Assembly (NCBI GenBank): GCA_036172245.1
Contig: JAYWIR010000006.1
Location: 5,642,001-5,706,000 of the forward strand
From: Raillietiella orientalis
Taxonomy: Eukaryota
DNA: 64,000 bases
Direction of reading: 5' to 3'
Under the pieces are notes generated by a model. It did not search any database. It saw only the letters and a program-made list of their open reading frames with translations, and was not told where the DNA came from. Positions within the stretch are counted from its first letter, which is position 1. Every line of letters starts with the position of its first letter. Positions 643-53,852 of this stretch are shown piece by piece. A program made the position numbers and the translations under genes.

Positions 643-660
643 ATGCTCGCGCCATGGTGA
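643..660 (+). promoter_or_regulatory. Short upstream ORF (MLAPW*) overlapping the FoxO start codon out of frame
   Basis: caacATGctcgcgccATGgTGA: ATG at 643 with A at -3, stop at 658-660, spanning the main ATG at 654. Confidence 0.4.
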
Positions 661-3507
661 CGGAGGGAGCGAAGATGCCGCTGCGGTCCGCGTCTCCGGT
701 GCTGCTCGCGTACCCGTCCCTGCCCCCTGCCTTCCTGAACGGCGGCGGCGACCTGGCGGCAGCCCACGCGTCCAAGAAGGAGGACGACGGCCCTCCCGCC
801 CACCACCACCACCACCACCACCACCATCACCACCACCACCATCCGGTTCCCTCGTGGGAAAGGGACAACGCTGCGTCGGCGGACAGCGACGCCGGCAAGC
901 CCCAGCCCGCCCCCGCGCCCGCGGGCACGCTGGCCGCCGGCGCCACCGCCAGGGGCCAGGACGAACCCCCACCCCCCGGATCGAAGGTCCCTAAGCGTCC
1001 CTGCCGCAAGAACGCCTGGGGCAACCTGTCCTACGCCGACCTCATCACACAGGCCATCCAGAGCTCCGCCGAGAAGCGCCTCACCCTCTCCCAGATCTAC
1101 GACTGGATGGTCCACAACATCCCCTACTTCAAGGACAAGGGAGACAGCAACAGCTCCGCCGGGTGGAAGGTAAGAGGGCGTGGCGCGAGCAAACGACCCC
1201 CCTGACCCCTTCAGCCTCACTGTCCCCTTTCCCTTCCCTCCCCCTTCCGTCGCATGAGAGTGGACCGAGACTGGGCCGCCCCTGCGGGACCCGGTATCGT
1301 CTTGCCTCCTCCCCCTCTCTGGGATCCAGTTCCCGGGAATGCGTTCTCGGGCCGGGGGCGAGTGCGCGGCAGGCCGCCGCCGCCGCCGCCGCCGCCGCCT
1401 CCGCCGCCTCTTGGCCTTCCCCCCCGCAGCGGGGCGGGCGCGTCCGCCTTCCCTCTGTTGCCTTCGTAACGGGAGCGCCGCCGCCGCCGCCGCCGCCACC
1501 GCCGCTCCGATACATTGTATCATCCGCGGGGGAGGATTTATGCGCCCGGCGGGCCCGCGCGCGCCCCCGGCCGCGCCGCCGTATATCACTCACGGGGCGG
1601 GGAGGGCTAACTGAGGGTTGCCGCGGCGCGGGCGGGCCCTCCGGCGCGCGCGCGCGCGGCTCCCCCACGGTCGGTCGGATCGACGTTCCTCTCCCCTCTT
1701 CCTTCCTTCCTTCCTTCCTTCCCGACAAGCTGACCGACTGCCAGAGGACCGGCCGCCGCTGCTGCTGCTGCAGGTGGTGGCGGGGTCGGGCGCAACCCGG
1801 AGGGCCGGCGAAGGGAAAAAGATCCTCCCTCCGCCATCGCCGCTCGATCACGTGCTGCGCCGCTTCCCCCGTCCTCCCGGAGGCTGCGACCCGGACGTCG
1901 CTTTCGCCCGGAGCCACCGCCGTTGCCCCAGCAGCCGGCTCGTGAGGAAGGCGGTGGCTGCCGGGCGCTCCTGTCCCTTCCCTTTCCCCGAAAGGGCCCG
2001 CGAGGTCGTGTTGCAACCCCTCCCCTTCCCTCTCCGTTTCAGGGAGACTCCTGACCAGCACGCAGAGGCGCGCGACTGACCCCAGGTGGAGGGGCGCGGT
2101 GGGGTCTCGCAAGGGCGGAGTCCCTCTGGAGCAGTCCCATTGCCTCTCTCAGGACTCCGCATGCCACCCCTTCGCGAGGGAGGGACGAGCCTCCTCGTGG
2201 TGCTCGGTATGCGGAGGGAGGCAGGGAGTGGGGGTCGGTCCTGTCCTTCTCCTTCTCTTTTCTTCCTGCCGTCTTCCTTCGGGCAGGGATGCGCGGGGCC
2301 ACCTGCACCGGCAGCGCATCCTCTCCGACTTACTCTCCGACTTAGCTCTGGAGCCCAGGGAGAGTCCCCTCGTCAGCGTCCCCCCCCCCTTTTCCTTTGT
2401 TTGGAGCGCCGTTACTCAGGGGATCCAAAGCGCTGCAGACCTCGGAGCGACCTGCAGTGGCACGGCGATGGAGCAGCAGGCACCGCTGGCTGCCGGCTTC
2501 TTCCGAGGCGCCATTTCCACCCCCGAGGAGTGCCGAGGGCATCCGGTGGCGGGGCAGCGGAGCGGCGAGGAGGGGAGAAAGGGGGGGAGAAAGGGAGGGG
2601 GGGGAGCAACGCGCGCACGCGTTCCGACCAGCCTGCGCGCACGGGGATGGCGCCGCACGCGAACTTTCTCGCGCCCAGCTGCTCTCTTTGCTGGCCGGAG
2701 CGCCGCCAGGAGTGTTGTCCCGGGAAACGGCGGAGCTCGCCTGTGCTGCTACTGCTGCTGCGGCGGGAGAGGGTGGGGGAGGAGGTAGGGTGGCTTTCCT
2801 GGACGAGGTGACGGCGGTGGCGGCGGCCCGCTGGGCTCCTCGCGTTGCGGTGATGGCGAGCGGCCGCCCGTCCTCGCCACGGCCGTGCGCGCGCGCACCC
2901 CTCGACCGCACCTCCTGCACGAGCGAGGAGGGAGCGCGCGCGCGGTTCCCCAGCGCGAGCACTGCGCGCGCACGCAGTAGGCAGGCAAGGGGGGTGTACG
3001 CTGCCGAGTCGTCGTCGTCGTACACCTCTGTCCCGTCCGGCGTACTACGGGGAGACGCGTCGTTGTCGCCGCTCCCTCCACGCTCGCCCTCCCTCGCCCC
3101 TTCCCTCCCCCCTTCTTCCCTCCGCCTTCCACGAACCTCGGAGAAAATCGTATCCCCTTTCCCTCCCCCTCGGCGCCCAAGTCGCCGGCGGCGTCGGTGT
3201 ACGTTCACCCGCGGCCGGCGGGATGCGAAGCTTCGCGAATTTAAAAATGGCTGCCGGCTCAGCCCGTGTACGAGTTCCCGATTACTTCTCGCATTTCATC
3301 TTTTTTCTCTCCTTCTTTCTTTCTTTCTCTTCTTTTCCTTTTTTTTTTTCTTTTTTTCTTGTTCCCCTACTTTCCTGCTAAGCAAACAGCATAAAAAAAG
3401 CGCATAAAGCATGTGCTGGAGGACAGCCACAAGTGTTAGGGAGACGAGAAGCCATTTTCATCTCTAACTAAGATGATTGTAACCTTTCTCTCTCTCTCTC
3501 TCTCTCC

Positions 3508-3538
<31 letters not shown>

Positions 3539-6500
3539 TGTATTTTTTTTTTTTGTTGTTGTTTCTTCTTTTTTCTTTTCCTTTTAGTTAGGCCAGTTGC
3601 TTTTCTCTATAGAAATTTGAGCAAAGCATGCCAATGACTTCTGGGAGCATCGCATTGTTGCGACGGCCGCCATTACAGATATCTGTTTACCGTGCCGACG
3701 GTGATCGTAGGCCCGGGTAACCAAGCGACGCTCCGTGCTGCTCTCGAATGCGAAGCGTTTCGAGGTGCAGCAATTTATACGAATCGAGCAGTGTGCGGTA
3801 GTGTGTGCGCGCGCGCGTGTTTTAAGTGTTTTAACGACGATTGCCCTCCAAAGTTCCGGTCCTTCGAGAGGTGTCTTTTAGCCCGACGAGTATATAAACT
3901 TCCTGTGATTCGCTGCAGGCTGCCAAGGTGTTGTGATCCTTGTCGTTCAGCACCTTTGACGTGTCGGAATGCACTCGCCGGTGTTGTGTGCACCGTGGCC
4001 GTGATTGCCGGAGAAGCAGCGCACGCCGGATGCTGCGGCGCGCCGAATCTCCGCGTTCCCATCACTCGGCTTCCCTCCTCCTTGCTGCTGCCGGCGCTGC
4101 CCGACGGGAGGCTGAAATCAGCTGACACATTGAGCAGTGTACAGTGTTTTCGTGTCGATTCTCTGTTCTCCTGCTCGGTTTCGCACTCGCAAAACACCTG
4201 ACTGATTACAACAGCAGCAGCCACGATGAGATAACCGACGTTGAAGCCAGAGGGCGAGTGGTAGACGGTGAGGCTCGCACATTCGTCGCCGCGCGACACA
4301 CTCCACTTCAGCAGCGCTGGAACGAATGATGGGTTAATCAGACATCCGTTCCGTTGCCAAAGCCCCACGAGGTACATTAAATACGGAGCCGGGGGATGCG
4401 CGAACGGATTTGTGCTGTTGAGAGAGAGAGAGAACCTGGCATCCGTGGATGCCCACGATTGACTGCCATGGTTTCGATCAAACGACCCGACTCGAGGAGC
4501 AGAGGGAAAGTCCATCTGCGCACTCTTCCGGGTGACCACAGGAAGAGTCTCGAGTGGCGTAGCACATGTTGTGCTCCCTCCCCGATCCAGGCTGCCCGAC
4601 AGCAGCCGTCAGGCTTGCCACGTTCTGTCGACACGGCTGCGCGTGCAAACTTTTTTGCACATTCCACGAGGAAGATTCGAAGCAAATTATTACCGTTATG
4701 TATTCACTGGACTTCCTTTTCCTACTTCTTCCGCGTCATTTTATCGCCATGTTTGTCACCTGAGAAAGTCCCTTCTCCTGACGTGAGGTTTCCACGGAAG
4801 GAGCCCTGCTAATCATTTTGTCGACTTGTCCGCGACCGTCGGTAAACAACAAGAAAAAAAAAAAAAAAAAGTCTACGTGCGCGCACCGGCTCGCAACCGT
4901 GCGTGCGTGCGTGCGTGCGTGTGGACTTGGCGAACCGGGGCTGCTGCCGCCTCCGCCCGCCCCACAGGCGACGTCTCTCTCTCTCTCTCTCTCTGTTTGC
5001 CAAGAGCGAGCGCGCTCTTGGATCCCGGAGTCCTCCGGTTCGAAATGGAGGGAACAGACCCGAAATCCGCGAGTGATTGGGACGCGAGTTTCGGGGATTT
5101 ACTTGCGTTTTCGTTACCGCTCTCAACAAATCTGAGATTTTTGAAAAAAAAAAAAAAAATGTCCGGTTTTGAATTGCAAATAACGTCGTCGGATGTTTTT
5201 CTTCTTCTTCTTTTCGTCCTCTCCTCTCGCAGTTGCATCGGAAGAGCTTTCGAAATCGAAGATTTGCCGTGTGTCGAGCGAAAATACACGCCGATGCATG
5301 CATAATGATAATTCATTTTCCTCGTGTTTTTCCAGCTTCGAATCCGATGGGATCCAAGCAATCTCGGCTGGCTGTTGTCAAAATACGAGCGAGAGTTTTC
5401 TGTTTTTCTTCTCACTCTGCGCCTCTCCTGCTCCGGGGAGGAGGAGGAGGAGGAAGGAAGGAAGGAAGGAAGGAAGGAAGGAAGGAAGCAGGGAAAGGGG
5501 AGGGTGCGCTCCGGGCATTCCAACGGCGAACCGAGTTGTTCCAGTAACCCCTCTGCCCGACGAAGACGTGGTCCAGTCGAAAACAAGCGCGAAGGAACGC
5601 GAAACGCGTGCCGGTCCAGAAAAGCTCGGAATCCAGGAATCCAAACAATCCCGGCTCTCCCTCTGTTCGCATTGGTTTTCCTTCCTTACTTTCTTTTTTT
5701 TTTTTACTTTCTGGAGGCAATGGACTTTCTGTGCACACACACGCGCGCAAACACGTACACACGTAGAAAAAGAGAGCCAGCGAGATGGACGCGTGCACGG
5801 AGTGACCGCCACAAAAGACAGTCACGAATCACACGCGACCCCCGGTTTCCCATCGCCACGTTTACGTTTGCTATGCAAATTTCCTTTTCGAGGCATCTGT
5901 GTGTTCCTTCCAAGAGAAGGCAGGCCGCCGCCTCCTCGAACTGACCCCTTCGACGGCTCCATTTCAGATGCTCTTTCTGTTATTTCGGTTGAAATCGGCT
6001 TTGTGCAGTATTTTCCTCCAGCTTCGTCCCAACCCTTCCCTCCCCTGTGCCTCTGAGCACAATGTTTTCTTTTCTGATTCTTTTCCTCCTTCTCCTCCTC
6101 CTCCTTCATTTTTTCGGAAAAGAGGCACCAACTAATTGCCGAATTCAATGGGATCACTGGACGTGTCTAATCCATTGTAGATCGTGACAAGAGTTTCCTT
6201 GGAGTTGTACCGGTGCGGAGGCTGCTGATATATGATAGCGGGCCCGGTCCAGTGGAAACTCCGACGCGCCCAGAATTCGCCCGTGTGTCCCGTGTTTTTT
6301 CTTTTTTTCTTCGGACAGCACTCGGTCCGCCGCCTCCCCCTTCGGCGCTTCGTTTGCATTTTTCATGCTTTCGTCACCCTGGTTGCGAGCTCCGACCCAT
6401 CGCTCTTTCCTTCCTCCTCCATGCGCCGCATCCTCCACGCTTCTGTGCTTATTTTTGCGCGACCGGTGCGCACGGGGTCGGGAGCGGAACCTCCTCTCCC

Positions 6501-9500
6501 CCCCTCCCCTTCCTCTTTCTCGCTTCCCGGGAAATCTTCCTTCCGACACGAATCGCAGGTGCACGCGCCTTTCGGTTCGCCTCGGTGTTGCCGGGGGGGA
6601 AGGGGAGGGGGGGAGAGGGAGAGGAACAGCTCTCCCGAGTGGTTTGTTGCTGCTGCGGGGTGGTGCAAGCGAAAGCGTCTTGCGACAGTGTTTGTTGCTG
6701 CAGATACCTTTTCAAGTGTATGCAGTGTCAATCAGCGTGTCTGATATCGTGCCCAGGTGAACACCTGGGAAGAGGCAAGCAGTTTAAAACAGAAGCCGCG
6801 TCAAAACATGGGAAGACGAAATCCAAGAGAAAGCAGTTGGTTCCTTTCTTTCTTCCTCGCCCGCTCCTCCCTCCTGCTCGAAGGGAACACAGGAAAGGGA
6901 GACGGCAGATCGGGGAAAGACCTGCTGCTGCTACTGCTAGGCAGAGCCCCCGCCGAGGTGCTGCCGTTCGTTGCCCCCCACCCTACGTGCCGGGGCGGAA
7001 CTTCGAATTTTCGAACGTGAGCGCAGGTAAGCGCGGCACGAGAGAGAACCGTCGGCGGTGCTGCAGCCTGCTCCCCCTCCCCCTCTTCCAGCGACCTGTC
7101 CGCATCCCCGCGCAGTTGCTCCAGCCAAGCAAGGGCGGCAGCAATCGTAGGCGGCCACGCCGCCGCCGCTGCGCGTTCCATCCTCCGCGTCTGGCAGTCG
7201 TCCCCTCCCCTCCGCCCGGTCGAATTCCTCCCAGCTCTTTGCTTCTCTTCATTTCCATCTCCCCCCCCCCCCTATCCTTCTCCTCCCTCCATCCCCGAAC
7301 TACTGAAAGAAATGAAACCCACACAATCGTTATGAAGAGGGGTCGGAGTTCGGCGAAGAAGTTTACCCGTCTTCTCTCGTCTTCCTCGCCGAGGCATCCG
7401 GATCGAAAACTCGCGCTAAAACGTTCGGCCCTTCGAAAGCACTACGTCACCTCCAAGCAGCGCCGTGAATGACTGAGGGATGCTTTACGTTTATGCACCT
7501 TCGAGGAAGAATGCGAGGCTGAAGAAGCCATTGTTCCTCCTCCCCCCTTCCGACAAAAAGGAGAAAAAAAGAGAAAAAGAAAAAGTCGGTGGTGTCGTCA
7601 TCACTCTTTTCGTTTTAACAGGAATGGTGCAGAGGTCAGCTGAGCTTCTGGCGTCTTGGCGGAGGAGCGTGGTGGTGTTCGCGCGCGCGATCCACGCTGC
7701 AGGAGTGCGACAGGGGTGCACGCTGTTCGTGCACGCTGTCCGGCGTGAACACAGACACCCATCGGACACCGATTTTCGTTCTACACGGCGCTGTCGCGCG
7801 TAACGACGCTACGGACCGTTGCTTATTGAAGATCCACGGCGTTACCCGGTTGCTGAGCTACCTCCGCTTCGAGGCGATGTTGGTCACGATGAACATCCCT
7901 CCAGAGTGAGGCTCTATCATTGCACGGCGATTGGGCTGACCTCTGCGATAACGCCAAACGTGGGTTCCTCGGAAGCATCCTTTTTAGGCTGGGCGACTGC
8001 ATTCGCGCGTTCCGGATCGTTGAAGATCGTTGCGTGCGATGCGTTGAAGAGTGCAGTCGTCGTTTCGACAATACCTCCCTCCTCCCCCATCACATATTTG
8101 TATCTACCTATCATGTGAGAGAAATATATATCAGTAGGTGTGCACTGGATAAATTGGATGATGAGTGATGATGAAGGATATGCCCTTCATAGAGACGCTG
8201 GAGTCGCCCGTAGCCACAGCCCAGCGGGGGCTCCCTTAACCGGGGAGGAGGATTCAGCTGCAATCAAGGCACGGCTGCGTAGAGAATTCTTCGCGTTCCC
8301 TTGTGATTGGATCACAGCGTTTTCCTCCTCCCTTCCCTCGGGTTCAAGCGAGCAAGCGAGGACAGCGTGCCTCCGGTTTTGGAACAGAGAAAGCGTAATT
8401 GGGAAGGGGAAGGCCGAAGTTTTGTCCGGGGTCACCTCGGCTTCCTGAAGACATTCACCTTTTCCTTGAGTCTTCGGTAACTTTGTTTCAAGGGGTTCTT
8501 GTCTCCAGTGCTCTCCGTAGGCCGTTCCTTCGAGCCCTTTGACGATGACAAGAGCGGGATGATGCATCCAGGCAGCTCTGTACCGGTGAGTGCAGTGCAT
8601 CAATCAAGCAGTGCGCAGAATCGAAGGACGGCGCGACCGGTAGGGGCAAATCAACGGTTCAACGGGGTTCTCGAATGATTTGGGGGGACTTGGGGGTCGA
8701 GACCTGTCCTTTTTTTGCCTCGGGAGCGCTTGGAAGCACGAGGGAATGGCTGAAATGTACCCTGAAGAAGACGCGTTGTGTCCATCAAGGCTGGTCTCGG
8801 GCACATGACCTCAAGCAGAAAAAGACAAAGTGGAGGAAGAAGGGGAAGACCAAGGAGAAGGAGAGAAGGACGAAGAGGAAGCTCAATGCATATTGGGAAA
8901 AAATCTCACAAACAAAAATTTCACCTGGGCGAGCCGGAGTGTCGCTTTTGAGAAAAATAAATGGACAGTAGTCGGTGGGACAAGGTCCCATCAAGTCCGG
9001 CAACTCTTAGGGAAGCGCCGACGAGGTCCACAGCATCCATGGAGGGGGATAAAAGAAACGAAAAGAAAAAGATGAATGCATAAAATAAGAAGAAAAAAGC
9101 AGTCTCTGGAAAAAACCGTCTTCGCGAGTAGGAGGAAGAGGGAAAGACTCTCCAGCAAGTCCTGGGCTGAGATCCTCGTCTTCTCCTTCCCTCCCTTTTC
9201 CGCTGCCACGGGAGTGCACTGATGTATGCTCGGAGGGAAGCCTGGGTACCTGCCCCCAACATCTTCCCGTGCGAGTCCCCGACCAACGTCGGAAGAATGG
9301 TCCAGAGTGTCAGCGGTTCCGGAGGTACTTAGGGTTCGCGAATTCCGGCAGACCGGGATCTCCCTCTCGAGCAGGAGAACGGGGAAGGAGGGAGAGGAGA
9401 GGGCAGGTTTTCACGAAGAGAGCTCCGGACGAGCAAGACGCGGAGGATCAAGCCCGCCCGCTTTGCGCGTGGGAGCGACAGGCCGAGAGGCGCTGCTCTC

Positions 9501-12073
9501 TGGACACAAAAACACGGGAGGCTCGGAGCAAGGCAAGGCCGCATCCCTCGCGTCCAGGAAGATACTTCCCGGCAGGTATCCCCTCCAAAGGGAGCGCGCT
9601 CCTTTCCCTCTCTCCCTCCACTGCCTCACCAACGAGGGACTCACTCTGGCGATTCGCAGCCGTGGAAACGGGCAGCGCCGGATAGCCGGCACGGGATTCG
9701 TCCACGGATCCGGCTGGCGCGCCCCGTCTCGCATCCTGCTCGCAAGGAAGACGCCCATAACAGTCGGATCCCGTGACCTCCTCCCTCTCCTCCTCTTTCG
9801 TTCGCTCACCGCCAAGGCAGGCCGGGCCTCCGACGACCCATCCGTCTCCTTCTCCTCCCCCCCTCATCCTTCTCCCCCGATTGGCCGAAGACGGTGGCCT
9901 CTCCGTTGCCATGGCAGTCTCGGGGCCGCGAGCAATGGATGTCGTCGCCTTCGCGCTCAGGCAGCTTTCACTTTCCTCCGTGAGATGAGAGGAGGAAAAC
10001 AAAACGAAAACAACACAAAGAGGTCGTAAATTTCTCATGCAGCCGATTGTGTGCACACGGGCTAATTGAACGGGCAAACACGACCCCCGGGGCAAACACG
10101 AACGTCAGTCCGTTATTTGCAAGCAGTCGGCAGAAGACCAAGGGTGACGGTGGACCATAACGACGACGACGACGACTACCCGCGAGTGGAACTCAGCGTC
10201 GAGTCCCGCCGCCTTTCGTGATGCGGCAGATCCCCGCCCTCGCCGGGGAGCCGATCGGTGCTGAGGAGAGGTGTCCAAGCAACCGCTCCATCCTCTTCGC
10301 ACCAAACAGCGTATCGGCTTAGGCGGCGAGGCGGAAGCCAGGAGGCCCCAGGGGCGAGGAGCGAAATGCACCGTGCAGGCGGCGCTCCAGGGAGGATCCC
10401 CTCCCTTCTTCCTCTCCGTCGTCTGCTCGGGGAGGAAGCAGTCGGGGAGTCCCTCCCACAGTTTTGGTTGCTGCGGGCGGGACACTTCGGACCGGTGGCG
10501 AGGAGGCTCGAAGAGCCACTTCCCCTCGTCGGAGCTCCCGCACTGCACCGCCCCTCCCGCGTGGAAGTCCCGCGATCGACATCTCGGGAAGGGTGGAAGG
10601 GGGGGGGGAGAGAAAACGCTCATGGTGGTGAAGCTCGCGTATCGGTCGCCCCCCTCCGGCACCGCCGGATTAGCACTCGCGTTGCGAAGGAGAATTCAGC
10701 TGCTGGCACGCGCTTGCCCGTCCCACGGACCTGTGGGGAGTGGGGAGTGCCTGGGGGAGGGCGGCCGACACGCAGAGCAGCCCATAAGGCGGAAAGAGGA
10801 GAAGGAAGAGCGGACCCAGCCCGGGCGACCCGGGCTGCACTCCACGAAGAGACGCAGGGGGCGCTTGCCCACGGGGAGCTTCCGGTTCCGGACGCTGCGC
10901 TCGTCCTCGAGTTGGAGGTGCCCTCAGGCAGGCACGCCTTCTCGGTCGCCGCTTTCTCCTGGGGAACGGGGCGCACCACCTCGCCCCAGCGGAACCCGTG
11001 TCTCTGGGCAACGCTCGAGTCCGCCAGAGGGTGGGAGGGATTCGCGGGGCAGCAGCCGTCGCCGCTGCTGTGGGCTCAGCAGCAACGGGGAATGGGGTGT
11101 GTCGGCCAGAGGCTCGAAGGGAGCGCCCCTGGCGGAATGCGGGGCAACCTGCGGGGGCGCCAACCTTTTCACCCTCTCGCCCTCGCGGACGGGAAGGCAG
11201 AGGATCTATGGGCAGTGGGAACCCCAATTTCCCTTCTCGCCCGCGCGTCGGGATTGTGCCGGGGTGGTGGCATCCTCGCGCGTAAGCGGGGCTTGAGGGA
11301 GCGGGCGTGACCTCTCCGGAGTCAACCGTGTGCTTCTCCTTGTAGAACTCCATCCGGCACAACCTCTCCCTGCACACCCGGTTCATGCGCATCCCGAACG
11401 AGGGGACCGGGAAGTCGTCCTGGTGGGTACTGAACCCGGACGCGATCCCGGGGAAATCCACCCGCAGGCGGAGCTGCGCGGACGGCTCCAAGCTCGACAA
11501 GCGCCGCGGGCGCTTCCGCAAGAAAGAGGACCTCTTCCGCAACCCACTGCTCGCCGGCCCCTTCTTCGAGGACAAGTTCCGTGCGCGGCCCGGCCCACTG
11601 GGCGACGCGGCGGCGGCCCTAGCCTTCGCCGGTGGGGCGGCCCCGCACGACTTCAAGTACCGAGGACCCGCGGACGGCGGGACCCTGCCGTGTCCCCTGC
11701 AGAAACCGCCCGGCGGCGGTGGCGGGGGAGACTCCCCGTGGTCGGCGCATGCCCATCCCCTGCTGCCCCACTCGGACGGCGGGCCCAAGTGCCCCGTGTG
11801 GAGCCCCGTGGTCGTCGCGGGAGGTGGCGCCTCTCCGGCCGACAGGATGCAGCGGCCCTTCCCGGAGCTGCCCTACGACGACCCCGGAGGTGGTGGTGGC
11901 GGTGGTGGTAGCGAATTCCCCGACAGCAAGTTCGGCAGCGGCCAGCAGCAGCAGCAGCAGCCTCTGCAGCCCCCCACGGACCGGCACGCGGCAGCCGCGG
12001 CTGCGGCCGCTGCGGCGGCCGCTGCCGCCGCCGCCTACGCCGCCGAGTTCGCCTCCTTCCCCGGCTACTCGCC

Positions 12074-12105
<32 letters not shown>

Positions 12106-12487
12106 GCGCAGGCGTCCTCCAGGAGGATGCGGGTCTTCAGCCTCTGTACCAGCCGGGAGACATTTCCGGCCTGCAGCAGTGCTACTTCATCCCGGGATGC
12201 TGTATCCAGGTGAGTGTGTTCTCCTTCTCCTCCTCCTCCTCCCCCCACCCCACCCCCTCGCGTACCTCCCGGCAGCCCGCTCTGACGTGCGCGCCCCCCC
12301 AGCAGAACTCCAGGAAGGCCGCCGCCAGGGGCCTCGACGACCCGACGGCCCCTCCCCTGACGGGACACTACCCCACGGACCACTGCGGGATGCTCCTGGG
12401 GGCTCAGCACCCCTTCTACTACGGTGGCGGCGGAGACGCCTGCAGGCCCGGCGACAAGGGGAAGCTCCCGCCCCAGTGCCCCCCGGC

Positions 12488-12522
<35 letters not shown>

Positions 12523-12737
12523 GGGCCGTCGCTCCCTCCTCCGTCCTGCCCAAATGCCTGCAGCGTTTCGACGGCGGGGATAAGGGAGGCTCGGCCCCCT
12601 CCGCGCAGGAGGCGGCGGGGGGAGATCTGGCCTACCACCACCTCCCGGCCAGGGGCTCCTGCGTCTTCATGCAGCCCGAGGCAACCTCCTTCGGCTGCGC
12701 CCTACCCCAGTGGATTACCAGCAAGTCCCCCTACTGA
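654..12737 (+). CDS. foxo: Forkhead box O (FoxO-family) transcription factor, divergent; 2-3 coding exons
   Basis: Exon 1 is 654-1169 (gccATGg ... [55 protein letters not shown]|gtaaga). The intron is 1170-11345. Exon 2 starts at 11346 (tgtag|[32 protein letters not shown]). The GDSNS insertion and the WK/NS intron position are FoxO hallmarks. A probable 93/96-nt in-frame intron lies at 12210-12302/12305; stop TGA at 12735-12737. About 603 aa spliced, 635 aa if that intron is retained. The start codon is inferred, since the frame is open upstream. Confidence 0.95.
801..842 (+). repeat. (CAC)n coding repeat, 14 consecutive His in the FoxO N-terminus
   Basis: Direct reading of 801-842. FoxO exons 2/3 also carry CAG poly-Gln and GCN poly-Ala tracts. 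Confidence 0.95.
3487..3541. repeat. Compound (CT)n(GT)n microsatellite in FoxO intron 1
   Basis: tctctc...tgtgtg directly visible. Confidence 0.9.
5437..5488. repeat. (GAG)n(GAAG)n microsatellite
   Basis: gaggaggaggaggaaggaaggaagg... directly visible. Confidence 0.9.
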
Positions 12738-14326
12738 CCTCCCGGTGATAGCCAGGCGCCGGCGGACGCGAGCGGAGGACCGCCGGCCCGCTCCCTCCCC
12801 TGCCCCCCAGGCGTCCGCCCACGTGCCGAGGAGACTCAGGGGAGGAGGAGAGAAGAGGAGAGAGAGGAAAAAAAAAACAACAAAAACAAGAAAAAAAAAA
12901 AAAAACAGCAACGGCAGCAGAAGGGAAGAGACGGGAGGGAAGGGTAGGGTGGGGTGGATAAGAGTGGGTGGGATCTGGGAACGGGGGTCTCCTGAGATTC
13001 CCGACCGGCGAAGGGCCCTTCGCCGACTCCACCTCCCTCCTTCCTCCTGCCCGGCGACCGGAAGACGTCCGGGACGGCGTCTTCGCCGGAACGCTCTGGT
13101 TGGCTCCCGGCACGATCGATGCCGCTCGAGGCCGTTGCGCGCGGCCAATCTGCTGCTTCCCTGAAGCGCCCTTCCCGAACGCGAATCCCGGACGGGCGGC
13201 CTTCCTCCGCCGTCTGGCATTGGTTCCCGCGAGAGTCTCATCTCCTCCTCGGCCGGGCCAGACACCCTCGCCGCCGGTGGCGCTGTCTCCAGGGAGGACG
13301 TCCCGACAGAAGTGGCGGGCGGAAGATCTTCCGGAGGGAAACAGGGAGGAAGGCAAAATCTCCGCCTGCAAACGTCTTCCGTCAGAGGATGCTGGATGTG
13401 GAGCCCGCGGTGATTACTTCAGGAGGCATAGCGCAGAACGGGCCGCATCCGCTGTGTCGTGGCAAAGAAAAGGAGCGGGAGGGGGAATTCCGCGCGTCTA
13501 CCACGGAGATCCCCGAGAGGCAGGGCGGATGAAGAGAAATCTAATTTCCTGGGCCACGGGCTATAAGGGGAGACGCCGAACGCGCGCGACAGCATCGGAG
13601 AACGTCCCGCCCTCCCAGAGCGCTGGCTGCGGCGGGCTAGTCCTGCTGACCGTCCGCCGCCGGTTCGCGGCGTTCTGCCTCCCTCCCTCCGCACGCTGTT
13701 CGGCGTGACGCGCGCCACAGCGAGGCACCGCCTCCGTAGCACCGCGAGACGCGCAGAGCGAGGAAAGAATGACCGCCCGAGAGGAACCGCGGTAGCGAAG
13801 GAGCATGGGAGAGCCGGGAGCCAAAGGTGGCTTCCCGCAATCATCCCTTCCTTCAACTCTTCCCGTCGTTTCAGCCCCCCTTCCCTCTTCCCCGCTCTCC
13901 TCTTCCTTTCCCATCCCTGGGAAAGAGACGCGGAATCCGGCGCACGGAGAGCGCACGCGCAGGCCTTGCCGCGTCTTCGAGAGGGGGGTCGCGAGGAGCA
14001 CCTGGCAACCGCATCTTCGGGTTCATACGCGGGCAGGAGGACTCATCTCGCGCTCTCGGCACGTTCACAGGAAACGAGCGCGCACCCAGAGGATGACAGC
14101 GAATTTCGCTGGCACCTCCTGTCGCCGGCGGCTGAGAGCCGGCGCATCACTCAAGGAGCTGTCTCCCGGAGCTCCTCACGGGAACAAGGGATTCTCCGAT
14201 GACGTTTCGCACGCGGCGGCGCGCGCCTCCCCGGAGTTCGAGGATGGTGGTGGAGAGGGGGCGCTTCGCTGCTGGCCAGGCAGCAGTGCTCCGCGCACAA
14301 CAGAATAGCCTGTCCTTGAGTGCTCC

Positions 14327-14424
14327 TTTCCCCAAATAGCGTCAACAATGGAGAGACCGTTTCCCCAAATAGCGTCAACAATGGAGAGACCGTTTCCCCA
14401 AATAGCGTCAACAATGGAGAGACC
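14327..14424 (+). repeat. Three near-perfect tandem copies of a 33-bp unit
   Basis: TTTCCCCAAATAGCGTCAACAATGGAGAGACC(G) at 14327, 14360 and 14393, with no spacers. Confidence 0.95.
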
Positions 14425-17400
14425 ACGTTTCCTCTGGGATCACGTGGGTTTCTGAGCGCTGGGAGTCTCGAAGTGCTGCCGTCTCGTTTGCTTCCTAGAG
14501 ACGTGGAGCCGCATGCCGCGCTCACTACGGCGTTTCTATGGATGAAAGCGTGGCGCTGCGCTCTCGTCGATCGGACCGTTTCCGGGCGTTTCCTCGGCTG
14601 AAGATCCTGTGGGATTGATGTGTCACAGTCTCGAGGATACCATCACGCGCGATGGGTATAAATGTGCACATACCACGCATCCACCACCCACTCGCACACA
14701 TAAGGTCCTGAAAAATCATAATGCTCTCGTATAATGCGTTTAGTGGTGGGAAGAGAGGGGAAGGGGGGGGGGAGAGGGAGGGAGGAGAAGGGCGAACGTG
14801 GCTCACTAAAGCTGCATGTCTCCAGGTGAACTCGCGAGCTCTCTGAGCCCACAGCCCTCGCGAGTGCACTCTCGCGCTAGCGCGTGTATTCGTCAGCCCC
14901 TGTCCACTGTTCTATCACACTGCTCGCTTTCCCCCTCCCCTTTCCCCCTCTCCTCAGCTGCGTGTTGGTTCGCCTTTTTCCAGGCGCCGCCGTCTTCCAT
15001 TTTACCTCCGACATCTCGACACATTGCAATCCGCGCCGCGTCGCTCCTCCCGCGGAAAATGAGTGACGACATTTTCTTTGTGAGTCACCATTGAATCGAG
15101 AACGGTTCTTCCCTATTTGCTCCTCGCTGCTTTCATCTCGAGAACAAAAAAAAAAAAAGAAAGAAAAGAGAGAGAGAAACTGCGCTGAGCGTTCCGAGTT
15201 GATGAAATTCAGACTCAGTAATAACCAGAATTGACTGATGGTGTTTGCTAGTTAGAACACGCGCTACGGATGTCAGGGATGCTGGGCAGGAGGGAAGAGC
15301 GAGAAGAAGAAAAAAATGAAAGAAAATGCGCTGTCCTGAGGTGCTGAGCTCTCTCGGTCTAAGCCGTCGCGTTTATCTTTTATGACTTTTCGCGCTGACC
15401 AAAGCTCCTTCTTTATCATTCTTCTTCCTCTTTTTTTTTTGCTTTTTTTTTTTCCTGGCTTCCTTCATTTGGCTGGCTGCGAAGAACTTTCTTTGAAAAG
15501 GAGCTAAGGGAGTTTCATCACGCGAACAAAGGAAGAGGGGACTACACGAATCTCGAGAAGCCTCGATCTTCGCGCTGTCCCGCTGGGAAGGGGAAGGGAG
15601 GACGCGTGCCGTGCCGTGCCTTTTCGGGAGAGCACCGTCGGCTCTCTGAGGCCTCTGACCCCACCTGCCATGCCGGGTATCGCCACCCAGGGGCTGCTGA
15701 AAGCTCTCTCGAAGGCGTTGCGGCCCGGGCGAACAAGTATCTCCTCTCCTTTGCCACGCTTCCCGCAGGCGTTCGGCTGGAGCAGTAGCTGCAGCAGCAT
15801 CGTCCGGCGGAGAGACGGCAGTAAGGGCGGACGGATCTCCCAGGAAAGAGGAGGCTCTTTCCTGGGAGCGAGGGCACCGAAGTGGCCGCCAGCTCTGGAC
15901 AACAAGCGCAACCTGCCACCGCCTCGCTCCTCCCCGCGGGATCCCCGGGAAGCGATTTTGAAAGGAGAAAGGGAGCCCTGGGCAGCTGGAGACTCTCCGG
16001 AAAGAAAGGGCCATCCAGGGCTCACGAGGAGTCGTAGGGTTGCGGCTCTTCCATTTCGGCTCTTCCACTCCTGGTGGCCCGGAAGGCCCTCTTCCCCCCT
16101 TTTTGCTTTCTCTATACCTCTTCTTCAGCTGCGGATTGTGGGGGGGGGGGGGACACTGCCACGGCCACGCGCTCGGAATGGCTGCCCGGAGCAACCCGCC
16201 ACACGGACACGGACGGGGGACCGACCAGAGTCCACGGGGAGGCAACCTGCCATCAGAATCGCGTCTTCGTTCCCGCGCTCGTGGGAGGATCGGAATCCGA
16301 GAGGTCAGAAGCGGTTCCGGTCAAGAGAGGGCGCGTCACCTAGCCCGTGCGGTAGCTCCCTGACTCTCCCTCCTCTGGAGTGCTTTCCGGCAAGGAGGAG
16401 ACACGGAGGAAGTTCTTTGGTGCACCAACGGGAAGGCGGAAGCCATCGCGGTCCTCCTCTCCTGACTGCGTGCGTTCCCACACCCCACCCTTTCGCCTCC
16501 GGCCACTGGCTGCCCTAAGCGTGAGGATGCTGAGCCACCCTTTTTCCCTCAAGCGAGGAGGCCTCCGAAGCGACTGTCGCCCCTGAAGGACCTTCAGCGA
16601 CTCCTCGTCGACCAACTCTCCGGCGCACCCTCTAAGGTGGCGGCGGGAGAGGGACAGAGAGTGCCGCCCTTCTGTGCTACAGCTCTCCTCGCCTTTGCCA
16701 GGGTGAAGCGAAGCCAAGACCACCTCTTTACGAAGGAAAGGTGGCGCCGGCAGGGGTTGGTTGCCTCTCCTCCCGGAAGCCTCCGTACCATGGTCGCTGC
16801 CGTTAGACGCACGCTGAATTCGTTTCAGCCCAGTGACGGGTGCACGCACGTTTACATAGAGCATAATTTATATCACCCATCACCGAGCATTCAAGCGTGC
16901 ATTTTCCTGCGCAAGCTCGCACAGATGTTTACGTAGGAAGATGAAAAACCTGCGAGCTCCAGGCGTCCCCCGTATTCAGTTCCTAACGTCGTTAGCGATT
17001 TTGCTTTTGCAAAAACTGACCGAAAGTTTCTGAACCGCGAGCTGAACTTCGGTCACCTCCGAGATGAGAAGGCACCTCCGAAACGTCGACGTAAGGAACT
17101 TTGCCCCCGCGACAGTCGAGGGCGACTCTCCGCGGAGGACGCGAGGAGCGAATCCGAGATTCGATTACGCTCTCTGCGCGATCACAAAGGTTGTTTTTGT
17201 TGTTGTTTTCTCCTTTTTCTCGTTTGGCTTTCTGCTTCCGTTTCCGCGCGCTTCCCATCCACCCCCGTGCGCTTTCGCGGGCTTGTCAAGAGCTCGCGTG
17301 AGCTTCTGTGCCACTCCGCGTAGTTCGCCGAGCCGTTTCCACCCACGATCCGCCCGAGCACGCTTGCGGGAACACTTGCTCCGGTTCTCGAGCGAGGACC

Positions 17401-18989
17401 GGGACACTCCAACAATGCCTTTCCCGCGTCGATCACGCTTTGTTGCCACGGGAGACGCGGGTGCCCCGGCGACGGACGGACGGATGCCTTGCTTCAGGAC
17501 GTACTACGGCGAAGAGGTGTCAGTGGGTTTGCGCGGCCTCGTCTCCGGAGGAATTCTGAACGGTTTCGAGAGACGCGAACCCACAAAGACTGCTGGGAGG
17601 GAGCAAGGAGCGAGTGGAAGTGCACCCGGGAAGCGCAAAAAGAAAGAAAGAAAGAAAGACAAAAAAAAAAAAAAAGAACGAACGAAAGAAAGAGAGGAGG
17701 AGGGCGAGGGGAGAGGGGGGGGGGAACCTAAAAGACTTGCGCATTCCTGAGAATGTTGTTCTCGGGAAACGAGGAGAGCCTCACGCCGAAATCCACATTA
17801 TCATTCCTCGGAGCATCTTTCTCCATAGGATGAAACAGATCTCGTCCTCAGGAATGCAGTGTAAAAACAAGAGAAGAATGAAAAGGAGTTCCTCCAAAGC
17901 TGCGAAAAAAACGATCCTCCACCGAGCAAATACTGAAAATTGAAAGACTGAAATTTCCGCTTTTCCGTCTTTCTTTTCTTTTTCTTTTCCTTCTTATTTT
18001 TTTAAAAAAAAGGAAAAAGGAGGAAAAAAAAAAAAGAAAAAGACGGTTCCGTTCCTTCACCTTTCTCCCCTCCTCCATCCCCACTATGTTCGCGAACTTT
18101 CTTCACACTGCGGGATCGAATTAGCCAGCCCGGCCCAGGGGGGACTCGCAGGATTCGAACCCGCGCGCGGGGACGGGAAAGCCGATCGCCCCCGCGCCCG
18201 TTCCGGGAGAGAACCGATGAAAACGAACGTCCGTCCGTCTCCCCTTATGCGATCCTCGGGACGGAGATACGGCGGGAGCTGCGTGAACGAGCGAGCCGAA
18301 AACGGGACGCGTGGTGGGGGGGGAGAAGGAGGAAGAATTATGAGAGCGGAAGGAGACCGCAAGGAGGACTGTAAAGAGTACTTTTAGGGTAAGGGAATCG
18401 CGATTTCCATTAGAATCCCGTATCAAAATCCCATCCGGGTTTTGTCCTCCCCCCTCCCGCTTCTCTTCCGGCTGGCGGGAGGACTCCAGGAAGAATCGAC
18501 TCGCGCGAGAGGCATCACGTGCCGGGGGGGGGGGGAGGTGGTCGAAATGCCCGAGAGCACTCGAAAATTAACAAACAAGGAAGGAGTGCTCCCCGGCCTG
18601 ATTTTCCCTCCCGACGGGCGCGGACGATTTCTGGCTCTTCCAATGGCACTCGCGCCGACAATAACGGATGATTCACGAGCCGCTGATACGATTCAGTGCG
18701 CTGGTGCCGGGCAGTTTCTTATCGGAGGCTCCTGGAGCATCGATGTCAGCGTGGCTCGCAAAGCAATCTTCTCTGGAAATGGGATGAAAATGACCACCCG
18801 CCTCCGCTCACTCCTCATTCCCTAGCCCTCCTTTCCGATCGAAATGAATGGGAGGAGGGGGGAACTCGAGGGACTCCGACGTGGGATAAATCCCTTGGAT
18901 ACCATCTGGGACCTCCCTGCATCCAAGGGCTGCTCCTTTTCACGCCTTCATCCCGTTCGAGAATCCTCCTGGCAGAGCGCTGCTCCGTT

Positions 18990-19310
18990 TGCTTAGCCAC
19001 GCGCAGCACCAGCCTGCGTCGCGGGTTCGAATCCCGCCTGGGACTGTTCGTCGACCGCCGCCAAGAATGGCAGTCTTCCAGTCCTCCTCCTCCCCCCCCC
19101 CCCTCCACCTCACAGAATAGCGCCGGTCGGCCTCGGTTGGCTCAGGGCGCGGCACCGGAGGAGGCCGGAAACCCCCATTGACCAGCCAGGATTAGGAGCT
19201 GACTCTCCGGGAGTCCTTTCGGAACTGCTCAAGGAGCCAGTTGGTTCCCCCCTCCGGTGATGACAAATGGGGGGCCGATCCATGGAGTTGCTTGGCATCC
19301 CCTTCGGAGA
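18990..19310 (+). mobile_element. Diverged tRNA-derived SINE-like repeat, copy 1
   Basis: B-box GGTTCGAATCCC at 19024-19035, followed by blocks shared with the other copies (cctcggttgg, ttgacc..ggatt..agctga, ccctccgg, ccatggag). Boundaries approximate. Confidence 0.55.
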
Positions 19311-19624
19311 AAGGGGACAAGACTCCGGAGTGCGTTCACGAATCGCGCTGGGCCTTTCGGAGGGAGCACAGCTGCCCTCCGGACTTCCCTCCCCTCTTGG
19401 CCGACGACCAATCGGTGCGGCTTTCCCGTTTGGTTTTGCCCTCGACTTTCGAGAGGGAGGGAACCTCCTCGTTCGTCTTCGGCGCCAGCCGCCTCCCGAG
19501 CGTCATGAGTTCTCTGAAACAAGCACCATTATGAAGATAGAAGAACGTGGGAGTTAGAAACGAATGTGGAAAATAAGGGCTTCTTCCTCCTTTCCTCCAC
19601 CCTCACTTTTCCGGGAATTTTGGT

Positions 19625-19900
19625 ACCAATCGTCACGGGTTCGAATCCCGCCCGGGGAGGGGAAGGGTTGACGCTGAGAACGGGGGAGTGCGTCATGGTT
19701 TTCGAATCCCCCTCCCCCTCGCAGGACGACAAGCTGGATGGCCCCTCGGTTGGATTCAGGTGCGTCACTGGTGGGAAACGGACGATCCTGTGGACCGGCT
19801 GGGATTGAAAGTTGACCCTCGGGGGTCCTTCTAGGAATCGAGGAGCCCGTTCCCTACGGGATGTCCCTCCGGAAGCGAAAATGGACCCTACCATGGAGCT
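19625..19900 (+). mobile_element. Diverged tRNA-derived SINE-like repeat, copy 2
   Basis: GGGTTCGAATCCCGCCCGGG at 19637, a second B-box-like GGTTTTCGAATCCC, then caggacgac...cctcggttgga...ccttctaggaatcgagga; co-linear with copy 3. Boundaries approximate. Confidence 0.6.
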
Positions 19901-19964
19901 GGCTGCTGCTCTCCCTCAGGGACTGCCTCTCCAGAGTGCCAGAAGAGCTGCGGCATTGCTTTGA

Positions 19965-20300
19965 AGGCCCGCTTCGGTGGTCGCGAGCGGAGGTGCCGCC
20001 AAGCGTCGCGGGTTCGAATCCCGCCCGGGAAGGGAAAGGGCCGACGCCTAGAAATGGGAAGGTGTGTCATGGGTTTCGAGTACCCCCAACAGGACGACAC
20101 TCTGGTTGGCCCCTCTGTTGGAATCGGGTGCGGCAGTACCGGTGGAAGACCCTAGACGGTCCCGTTGACCGGTCGGGATCGGAAGCTGATGCTCCAGGGC
20201 CCCTTCCAGGAATCGAGGAACCTTTCGGGGTTCCTCCCTTCGGTTGTAGATGGGGAGCCATCGATCCTTGGATCTGGTCGAAACCATCTCTCCCCCTTCG
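19965..20300 (+). mobile_element. Diverged tRNA-derived SINE-like repeat, copy 3
   Basis: A-box-like GGTGGTCGCGAGCGG, B-box GGTTCGAATCCC at 20011-20022, second GGGTTTCGAGTACCC, then caggacgac...cccttccaggaatcgagga. Boundaries approximate. Confidence 0.6.
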
Positions 20301-39907: not shown

Positions 39908-41665
39908 ATGTCAACTGAAACTGTCTGCCGTTTCGTTTCAAAGAAGATAAAAAAAATCAGATGGAAACCATCCCCAAAAGATTGTTTCTTGAAAAATGAC
40001 GTCTTCATCGTTGGATCATGGGATGATAAAGTGATTGTATTTTAAAGTGCTTCATCGATTTAGTGTGTATTGTGTTGATTTTTCGAGTGATGTGCGCATT
40101 ATTAGTATCGTTATTTGATAAATTGCGGAATTTTATTAGAAATGCCCAGCAACCAGCACGGAGGCTGCATCAAACTTAACGTTAGCGTTCCGGTCTACAT
40201 TTTCTTGGACATAGTAGAGCTCGTATCTCATCAATATGCCACGCAATTCGTATATTCTGTTTTACACCGCTGTTTTGCGAACCCTTGAACCGTGTATGTG
40301 GAGGGGGGGGGGCATGGGATGCAAAACCGTACGATTCCTTGAACACTTCCTTAAGTGATCACATTGACTTCTTATTGATTTCAGAAAAACCTGATTTGCG
40401 TATGGCAACTCGATCGTGGTTCTTCAGAAGAACACTTGCTAGAGCCTTCCCTTGTCTGTTCAGTTCCCATAAGTGAAGATGTTTTGGCCTTGGAGGTACG
40501 GTACTTTTTGATTACATATTTCAGATTAGTGTTTTTATTAGTACTTAACTCCAGATCATGTTGTTCTTGGCGGATCAGATGGATGTGTGTATGTTTATCA
40601 ACATGGATCTCAAAATCTTACTCGGAAAAAAGAATGGAAAAACATCCATTTTTATAAGTTAGTATCATGTAGTTCAGTCATTAATTCCATGTTTTCGTCA
40701 TGGAAATAGGCTAGAGGAGTCTGATAATGATTAACGTTATTAATTTTTAGATCCAGGAAGGCACCCTGCACAGATTTAGCTGCATTGCATGAACAAATTA
40801 TTTCCATTGGAGAAGATGGTAAAATAAATGTACTGAATATACAAGAAAAAGATCCTGTAAATGCAGTCGGTAATTTTTATAATCTTTGTGTATGCCCTGT
40901 GTCTTTTATCTTAAGCATTTCAGTACGTTTTATTTACCACCTTCAAAATATAATGAAATTCAATTTTACTTTGTAGAGAATGGCTCCACATGCTCATTAT
41001 TGTGTGTGACTTACAGCACAGGTAATGAAATCCTAACAGGAGATATGCAAGGGCAATTAAAAGTGTGGGACTTGCGTTCTGGAATGAAAAAACACAAACA
41101 TGTCTTCAAGTTGCGTGGTCAAGAAGATGGCATTACATGTGTCAGTTGCCATCCATCTCAGAACTATCTGGTTGCTACTGGGAGCATGGAAGGCTTGTTG
41201 TTGATGTGGGATCTTCGCCAAGGCAGCCAGCCAGTTACAGTTCTGAATGGTCATCAGAGCACTAGTAAGTCTTCTTGACTATGCTGAAACTCAATAAACA
41301 CCAAACATCCAGTGCATGAAGTGCATTTCCATAGTGTTCAACCTAACAATGTCTTCTCTTGTTCAGAGGATGGCTCTGTATGGCACTGGAATATGTGTGA
41401 TTTATTAACTAAGGTGCCCCTTGACAATGGTAAGCCAATTAATAGATGAATGCTACTTCAAGGGATGATTGTCTCCACAGCAAAAAAGGATGGGGAAAAC
41501 AATTCTCTGTGGTTAAATGAGGAGTATGTTCAGAGTAACCTGAACATCACTTCTTTACTTCCATCCAATCATAAATCCATCAACAGTCTAGATGTTCAGG
41601 GAAATCAGTTGTTGTGTGCTGGAGATAGTGAAGCTTTCTTCCTTTTGTCATCCCTGAAATTATGA
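39908..41665 (+). CDS. Nup43: Nucleoporin Nup43 (WD40 repeat), 7 exons, ~352 aa
   Basis: Exons 39908-40030, 40385-40495, 40542-40657, 40751-40869, 40977-41264, 41313-41429, 41481-41665; all introns GT-AG and frame-consistent. Motifs FVSKKIKKIRWKP, VGSWDD, SIGEDGKI, GQLKVWDLR, CHPSQ..VATG, EVHFH...VFSCSEDGSVWHW and SINSLDV...LLCAGDSEA match Nup43. Confidence 0.93.
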
Positions 41666-53600: not shown

Positions 53601-53852
53601 GGACACTGACGTATCCTTGATACGTTACTTTGTGATGGAGGTTTTGGACGTGATCGCCCCGCCATATTCTTCGGAGTTCGTCCAGCTGTTCCTACCCATG
53701 GTAGAGAACGAAGAAATCACAGGCAGCATGCGTGCTGAAGGGGAGAATGACCCTGTCTCTGAATTCATTGGTAGGATAGGTGACTCGTAATTATTCTTGC
53801 CATGTGTGATTTCCTAGTTCACTGCAAGGCCAATTACATAGTGATGGCTTGA
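47664..53852 (+). CDS. NELFCD: Negative elongation factor C/D (TH1-like), 11 exons, ~578 aa
   Basis: Exons 47664-47714, 47988-48106, 50633-50742, 52064-52173, 52221-52328, 52370-52522, 52575-52705, 52748-52935, 52981-53441, 53500-53770, 53818-53852. Motifs [83 protein letters not shown] and [21 protein letters not shown] are TH1/NELF-D. Exon 1 is the least certain. Confidence 0.95.

Follow-up and report, generated by a model that had tools for sequence, protein, structure and literature searches.

A FoxO-class gene without canonical Akt sites in Raillietiella orientalis: a candidate insulin-uncoupled forkhead factor

Background

FoxO proteins are the main transcriptional output of insulin/insulin-like growth factor (IGF) signalling in growth, stress resistance and ageing. 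The engineered mutants FOXO1-AAA and FOXO3-TM, which carry alanine substitutions, are constitutively nuclear and insensitive to Akt. For the natural family, the three Akt sites are described in PMC7140813 as highly conserved and control by Akt as a hallmark, and FOXO6 is named there as the only member without one Akt site and the export signal. FoxO duplicates with diverged expression have been described from spiders (FoxO-1 and FoxO-2), a leech (two copies) and the flatworms Stenostomum and Macrostomum (three to four copies) (PMC9269926; bioRxiv 10.1101/2025.01.09.632129). The subject of this study is a FoxO-class gene on the forward strand of a 64,000-nucleotide (nt) stretch of the Raillietiella orientalis assembly GCA_036172245.1 (contig JAYWIR010000006.1, positions 5,642,001 to 5,706,000). 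This whole stretch is called the window, and positions are counted from its first letter. The predicted protein has a well-conserved FoxO DNA-binding domain and lacks a canonical Akt motif at each of the three positions; word searches of the open-access literature found no description of a FoxO without all three sites. The gene had been singled out earlier from the letters of the window, and that account is referred to as the original prediction.

Results

The DNA-binding domain is of the FoxO class

The forkhead domain is divided between two exons and both halves match the Pfam forkhead profile PF00250, which has 88 positions. The half in exon 1 covers profile positions 4-43 and the half in exon 2 positions 49-83. 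The score of the second half, 27.0 bits, lies right at the 27-bit cut-off because each exon carries only half a domain. Among solved structures in PDB the best match to exon 1 is FOXO1 (4lg0_A, E-value 8e-29). The FOXO1, FOXO3 and FOXO4 chains range from 8e-29 to 1e-22, against 1.7e-6 for the best chain of another class (FOXP, FOXA, FOXL and others). Exon 2 matches the DAF-16-type chain 2mbf_A with an E-value of 5e-17 and FOXO1 with 4.7e-16, the FoxO/DAF-16 chains together ranging from 5e-17 to 2e-10.

An alignment with 34 bilaterian FoxOs was used as reference, with 126 columns in the forkhead domain and basic region. A GDSNS-type insertion before helix 3 is specific to the FoxO class. The 11-residue insertion containing GDSNS in the window protein is identical to that of most of the 34 FoxOs, and the GKSSWW sequence is also unchanged. 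Of the 61 columns without variation in the reference, 58 are unchanged in the window protein; the three exceptions are R119K, Q189P (in wing 1) and A215S. A residue seen in none of the 34 FoxOs occurs at 11 of the 64 variable columns. Substitutions are strongly concentrated outside the constrained positions, a distribution that suggests purifying selection on the DNA-binding domain. The basic cluster KRRGRFRKK stands after wing 2, and the nuclear localisation signal feature of FoxOs (RRR...KRRGRFRKK) is present. The DNA-binding domain places the gene in the FoxO class. The original prediction had described a FoxO with a well-conserved DNA-binding domain and basic localisation signal, and the Pfam and PDB matches, the conserved columns and the basic cluster all bear this out.

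The Akt motifs are lost at all three positions

The spliced product of 635 amino acids has no match to the pattern R.R..[ST]. The original prediction had claimed that no canonical Akt motif is found at the three sites; the motifs that it quoted were recovered at the coordinates given there, and the claim stands. The absence of RxRxxS/T is unremarkable when taken alone, as about 0.2 matches are expected in a protein of this length (estimated from about 5% Arg and about 10% Ser and Thr). Judged by the alignments, the signal lies in the loss of the motifs at homologous positions and not in a mere lack of matches. The conservation of each motif was counted with strict patterns in the 120 best FoxO matches from the databases, except that the N-terminal site was counted in the 102 of them that have the first forkhead half.

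The second site reads RRRSCA, while RRRxx[ST] is kept by 120 of 120. At the acceptor, column 217, the window protein has Ala where each of the 34 aligned FoxOs has Ser or Thr; at column 215 it has Ser in place of an Ala shared by all 34. The pattern was also sought in 135 further FoxO representatives. Eleven of these fail it and none of the 11 is like RRRSCA; they include nematode-type RxRxxT sites, truncated fragments and two sequences with a one-residue-shorter RRRA[AT]LE. The middle site may vary across taxa more than the 120 named matches suggest. The two sequences with RRRA[AT]LE are the FoxO fragments P0185 and P0186; they do not fit RxRxxS/T at this site, and the third site of P0186 is normal. 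In the window protein the two changes give RRRS at residues 212-215, the only match to R[RK].[ST] in the 635 amino acids. It fits the PKA-type pattern R-R-x-S and not RxRxxS, which agrees with the suggestion that this could be a PKA-type site.

The third site had been read by the original prediction in FRARPGP, 38 residues after RRR. The absence of an acceptor was right but the location was not. BLASTP, with an isopod FoxO, and an independent MAFFT alignment place the homologous position alike, in a 12-residue remnant further downstream. This remnant is 63 residues from RRR (canonical median 64, minimum 49). The arginine at -5 is replaced by Lys and the acceptor Ser by Ala, and the downstream serines of SNASS are lost. 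FRARPGP probably corresponds to the FPESP stretch ahead of site 3, and not to the site itself. Of the 120 database FoxOs, 101 have the third motif, and some of the other 19 are shorter isoforms or partial models.

Neither exon 1 nor the open frame 3-1202 contains the N-terminal motif RxRSxTWP, which 100 of the 102 FoxOs counted have kept. The candidate remnant is PVPSWE, directly after a tract of 14 histidines. Its Ser67 precedes the Trp of WGN by 55 residues, a distance close to the canonical median of 51 (range 42-155, n=100). PVPSWE is plausibly the decayed N-terminal Akt/14-3-3 site, a homology suggested by six residues only. The remnants of the N-terminal site, the third site, the transactivation region and the terminal xWV are collinear.

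On balance these results point, with somewhat more confidence than doubt, to a functional and highly derived FoxO-class factor that would bind FoxO sites outside the control of Akt and reside in the nucleus regardless of insulin.

Gene structure and C-terminal region

The gene has two exons, possibly three, at positions 654-12737 of the forward strand (Table 1). The last base of exon 1 is 1169 and not 1170, the GT of the donor being 1170-1171. All coding segments, the novel N- and C-terminal parts included, have a guanine-plus-cytosine (GC) content of 0.83-0.96 at third codon positions (GC3) versus 0.42-0.57 at second positions (GC2); for exon 2 the values are 0.83-0.95 and about 0.55-0.57. 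Flat values of 0.62-0.75 in all three positions (GC1/2/3) characterise the introns and the sequence on either side of the gene, and flatness was also found for the 10,176-nt intron by itself. The candidate 93-nt intron in exon 2 has GC1/2/3 of 0.52/0.74/0.90, differing from the adjoining coding parts. If it is retained the product has 635 amino acids and if it is spliced 604, with the frame open either way.

The difference between GC3 and GC2 is about 0 before position 654 and +0.37 to +0.53 from ATG 654 on. Upstream of the ATG, at 3-653, GC1/2/3 is 0.74/0.71/0.67 and codon periodicity is absent. No stop interrupts the reading frame of ATG 654 upstream, as far as position 3 of the window, and this frame holds no earlier ATG. 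The onset of periodicity at ATG 654 argues against upstream coding sequence in exon 1, and the sequence fits ATG 654 as the translation start.

Table 1. Coordinates of the FoxO-class gene and its features in the window.
Feature	Position	Strand	Remarks
Exon 1, coding part	654..1169	+	ATG 654, context cgccATGg; 172 codons; ends ...SAGWK; donor GTAAGA at 1170
His14 tract	801..842	+	Over the alignment columns of canonical RxRSxTWP
PVPSWE, candidate N-terminal site remnant	843..860	+	Ser-Trp retained; arginines at -5 and -3 lost
Forkhead domain, first half	1005..1169	+	Includes FoxO-type GDSNS insertion; Pfam PF00250, E-value 1e-11
Intron, phase 0, 10,176 nt	1170..11345	+	Splits forkhead domain between GWK and NSIRHNLS; acceptor ttctccttgtag followed by AAC
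Exon 2, open frame	11346..12737	+	463 codons and TGA at 12735-12737
Forkhead domain, second half	11346..11438	+	Recognition helix unchanged; Pfam PF00250, E-value 4.8e-6
Site 2 remnant RRRSCA	11463..11480	+	Ala217 in place of acceptor Ser/Thr; Ser215 in place of invariant Ala
Basic cluster KRRGRFRKK (FoxO nuclear localisation signal region)	11499..11525	+	Aligns to K[KR]RGR[VA][KR]KK of the 34 FoxOs
FRARPGP, earlier site 3 candidate	11577..11597	+	RxR present, acceptor absent; 38 residues after RRR
Site 3 homologous remnant, 12 residues	11646..11681	+	Residues 273-284; BLASTP and MAFFT against DFRxRxSSNASS
Candidate 93-nt in-frame intron	12210..12302	+	GTGAGT...cccccccag; stop-free
C-terminal 10 residues	12705..12734	+	QWI aligns with canonical terminal [S/Q]WV[H/R] (MAFFT)

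Past the basic cluster, exon 2 is rich in Ala, Gly, Pro and Gln, with the tracts Q6, Q9, Q11, A16, G6 and G8. The Pfam transactivation domain FOXO-TAD (PF16676) and the KIX-binding region (PF16675) gave no match at E-values up to 0.1. A full-length FoxO profile gave only a stretch of -3.8 bits over the transactivation region, and MAFFT found a weak remnant when aligned against the transactivation motif LECxVDxxIxHELxxxGxLDFNF. In an Atlas feature search, exon 2 residues 86-463 matched FoxO C-terminal clusters with values of 0.80 and 0.79, which are below the meaningful level and serve as a lead only. As judged by these comparisons, the canonical transactivation-domain motif is degenerate and Gln, Ala, Gly and Pro tracts stand in its place.

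Two further observations concern the same region. An A-rich run is found at about 12870-12910, 3' of the FoxO stop. A full-length U1 spliceosomal small nuclear RNA gene lies within the FoxO intron on the same strand, at 7858-8016 (+); the match spans positions 1-166 of the model and, with 76.4 bits, exceeds the gathering score of 69.5.

Divergence, lineage rate and composition

The forkhead and basic region of the window protein has a terminal branch of 0.58 substitutions per site, about 20 times the median (0.029). It shares at most 77% identity with other FoxOs (median 74%), compared with 76-89% for canonical pairs from insect to sea urchin. Beyond this region no counterpart was found in the protein databases searched. 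The matches to exon 2 among 5.8 billion proteins span only 9-50% of the query, and a search of 1.84 billion representatives gave no match at an E-value of 1e-30 or below, the best scoring 95 bits. The best-scoring stretches lie essentially within exon 2 residues 1-142, with one match reaching 213. N-terminal residues 1-117 had no match at E-values up to 0.001, which is weak evidence.

The rate of the lineage was gauged with a second gene of the window. This is a multi-exon NELF-D/TH1 gene at about 50600-53790 (+), with introns of about 60 nt and Pfam TH1 pieces corresponding to profile positions 60-572. Its branch is 0.34 versus a median of 0.12, about 3 times. The lineage is somewhat fast, and the acceleration of the FoxO is gene-specific. 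NELF-D is closest to arthropod proteins (up to 80% identity over 245 columns) and about 58% identical to human, and in a quick tree the window sequence falls outside every sampled arthropod order. The top NELF-D match, labelled as a contaminant of a sturgeon record, was rejected as a close relative; it is an internally duplicated, vertebrate-like protein. A vertebrate origin, prompted by the GC-rich and CpG-rich 5' end, was also rejected in view of the low NELF-D identity to human, only about 58%, and the invertebrate-type NPDAxPGK...KRRGR pattern of the FoxO. Judged by sequence alone, the host belongs in all likelihood to the arthropods or to a group close to them.

One explanation is that this gene is the only FoxO of the species, the link between Akt and FoxO having been severed or rerouted in the whole lineage, with GC-biased substitution aiding the erosion of motifs rich in Ser, Thr and Asn. 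The ancestral intron position and the collinear motif remnants are as expected of the original locus. The lineage is fast overall, and the region is extremely GC-rich, as seen in the GC3 values. The non-forkhead part consists to 45% of Gly, Ala, Arg and Pro (canonical median 29%) and to 10% of Ser and Thr (19%). At site 3, as read from the alignment, Ser has given way to Pro, Ala or Gly and Asn to Asp, all of them changes towards GC-richer codons. The replacement of Arg by Lys and of Pro by Tyr at the same site, however, runs against GC pressure, and one canonical FoxO of equal composition (46% Gly, Ala, Arg and Pro) retains all three sites, so composition alone does not remove them. GC pressure may have helped the erosion of the sites without being its sole explanation. 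The explanation also has to account for a forkhead branch some 20 times the median beside one of about 3 times for NELF-D, and for the loss of a link that PMC7140813 presents as a hallmark of the family. A sole FoxO is regarded as unlikely, if the best of the alternatives. Since the acceleration is gene-specific, a lineage-specific paralog appears the likelier origin.

Search for further exons and hidden motifs

A second alternative is that the gene model is incomplete, an upstream exon beyond the window carrying the canonical N-terminal site and the protein being only partly uncoupled. FoxO genes such as daf-16 have isoforms with alternative first exons, only 653 nt are available upstream of the ATG, and the frame is open over nearly all of them.

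A profile of 60 full-length FoxOs was compared with the 2262 open reading frames of at least 12 amino acids in the six frames of the 64-kb window. Only the two forkhead halves were matched (E-values 5e-42 and 3e-36), the next match having an E-value of 2.9, and no further FoxO exon was found in the 64 kb. Neither a FoxO-like exon inside the 10-kb intron nor an alternative exon 2 was found within the window with this profile. As a control, N-terminal site fragments of about 31 residues from 10 held-out FoxOs were placed in the same database. All 10 were recovered at E-values up to 0.24, eight of them below 1e-3. Third-site fragments were recovered in 7 of 7 cases at E-values up to 2e-6. Of the 10 C-terminal 70-mers, 9 appeared among the matches. 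A canonical exon within the window would consequently have been detected.

Motifs in other frames were also considered. RARLTTW at 587-607 was rejected as a hidden N-terminal site; it is out of frame, the stop at 542-544 is followed by no ATG in its own frame, and such matches, of which there are four in the six frames of the window, are at chance level. A frameshift artefact was rejected too, as neither RRRxx[ST] nor [FY][RK]xRx[ST][ST] occurs in the other forward frames over exon 2. No Akt-site motif was found in the other forward frames over the first 14 kb.

An incomplete model is quite unlikely in the light of these results. Codon periodicity begins at 654, the ATG has a strong context, and no convincing acceptor was found just upstream of it. 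The 400-amino-acid open frame 3-1202 matches the FoxO profile over the forkhead part only. Even if the explanation were true, sites 2 and 3 would still be absent. An exon upstream of the window could restore site 1 at most, because sites 2 and 3 lie collinear in exon 2 and are lost there.

An unlikely alternative: a decaying or non-functional duplicate

The least probable of the three alternatives is a young unprocessed pseudogene in which the forkhead half is not yet disabled; it would account for the loss of all regulatory motifs and of the transactivation motif, the change of two invariant residues of the DNA-binding domain (R119K and Q189P), the expanded amino-acid repeats, the lack of a classical poly(A) signal nearby and the lack of relatives of the non-forkhead parts in the databases searched, but not for a strongly non-uniform change with an almost intact forkhead domain between unrecognisable flanks, a frame open over 635 codons where a stop is expected about every 46 codons at this composition (estimate), an intact start, donor and acceptor, or the strong codon-position periodicity through the N- and C-terminal parts.

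Other features of the window

The window is a GC mosaic with 53-72% GC in 1-38 kb, 32-50% in 38-60 kb and 57-69% in 60-64 kb. For CpG the observed/expected ratio falls from about 1.0 in the GC-rich sequence to 0.68 where the window is AT-rich. GC3 is 0.83-0.96 in the FoxO versus about 0.6 in a NELF-D exon 40 kb away.

A gene for a cathepsin F/L-like cysteine protease is found at 58171-61269 (+), with cathepsin F as the best solved match. It has an I29 propeptide at 60160-60405 and a Peptidase_C1 domain at 60736-61269. A weak cystatin-like match at 58171-58860 has an E-value of 0.0017, below the cut-off. An isolated, exon-sized open reading frame with a WD40 repeat lies at 40883-41275 (+) (E-value 4.5e-12), and the rest of that gene is absent among the open reading frames scanned.

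Discussion

The reading favoured here, a functional FoxO-class factor that Akt does not control, implies the following mechanism. With the forkhead domain, its FoxO insertion and the basic cluster in place, the protein would keep both binding to FoxO elements and entry into the nucleus. Each element through which PI3K and Akt/SGK remove a FoxO from the nucleus would have decayed in place. Akt and SGK would be unable to phosphorylate the canonical positions, and neither capture by 14-3-3 nor insulin-driven export would follow. FoxO sites would then be occupied whatever the activity of insulin or Akt. Depending on the tail rich in Gln, Ala, Gly and Pro, the protein could be an insulin-independent activator or a competitor of a canonical FoxO. 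What kinase control remains would act through other sites, for example RRRS215, where a different basophilic kinase could steer DNA binding or nuclear import from within the basic stretch. We infer Akt insensitivity, nuclear residence, expression and the status of a paralog from the sequence.

Several points weigh against this reading. The loss of a consensus is no proof of a loss of phosphorylation, and a basophilic kinase could still use RRRS215. The loss of the transactivation motif would equally fit a decaying gene. The databases searched yielded no ortholog of the gene, and the non-forkhead sequence, 80% of the protein, is of low complexity. Neither AATAAA nor ATTAAA occurs in the 7 kb past the FoxO stop (12738-20000). 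The window begins 653 nt before the ATG, and an upstream or alternative first exon with an N-terminal site may lie beyond its edge.

If the reading of an Akt-independent FoxO is true, the gene would be a natural counterpart of the Ala-mutant experiment, showing a FoxO that insulin cannot switch off, and would give a handle to separate the Akt-dependent from the Akt-independent functions of FoxO. In a milder form, a retained paralog may be an Akt-blind occupant of FoxO sites that sets an insulin-independent floor or ceiling on the expression of the targets. The stronger form, to which we give little credence, is that the species has no other FoxO. An animal lineage would then exist without the insulin-PI3K-Akt brake that is otherwise kept from cnidarians to mammals, with a permanently nuclear FoxO under other inputs, and this would be a rare instance of a deeply conserved pathway having its core rewired.

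The closest known systems differ in what they share with the window protein. The canonical invertebrate FoxOs (dFOXO, DAF-16 and the arthropod and mollusc FoxOs P0004-P0123) have in common with it the forkhead insertion, the position of the intron that splits the domain, the NPDAxPGK-RRR wing and the KRRGRxxKK basic cluster. The order of the parts is also common to both: N-terminal site, forkhead domain, site 2, basic cluster, site 3, transactivation region and terminal xWV. Unlike these FoxOs, the window protein is without RxRxxS/T at the three positions, without the SNASS serine cluster and without a FOXO-TAD/KIX region detectable with Pfam, and it bears His14, Gln, Ala and Gly tracts. None of the sequence features of the Akt-regulated type that were tested, namely the three sites and the TAD/KIX regions, was recognised in it.

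Duplication of FoxO in invertebrates (PMC9269926; bioRxiv 10.1101/2025.01.09.632129) offers a likeness to lineage-specific paralogs, among which the window gene would be counted if its presumed duplicate origin is right. FOXO6 is alike as a natural FoxO in which shuttling by Akt is partly lost, with the third site and the export signal missing and the protein mostly nuclear, as described in PMC7140813. FOXO6 keeps two of the three Akt sites and is still regulated by Akt, whereas the window protein keeps none. The window FoxO is not an ortholog of FOXO6, having the invertebrate-type NPDAxPGK/KRRGR. Like the engineered Ala mutants, the window protein has Ala in place of the acceptor at sites 2 and 3. 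It differs from these mutants in being natural, in keeping the Ser of site 1 with the arginines lost, and in the divergence of the rest of the protein, which makes its role as an activator uncertain.

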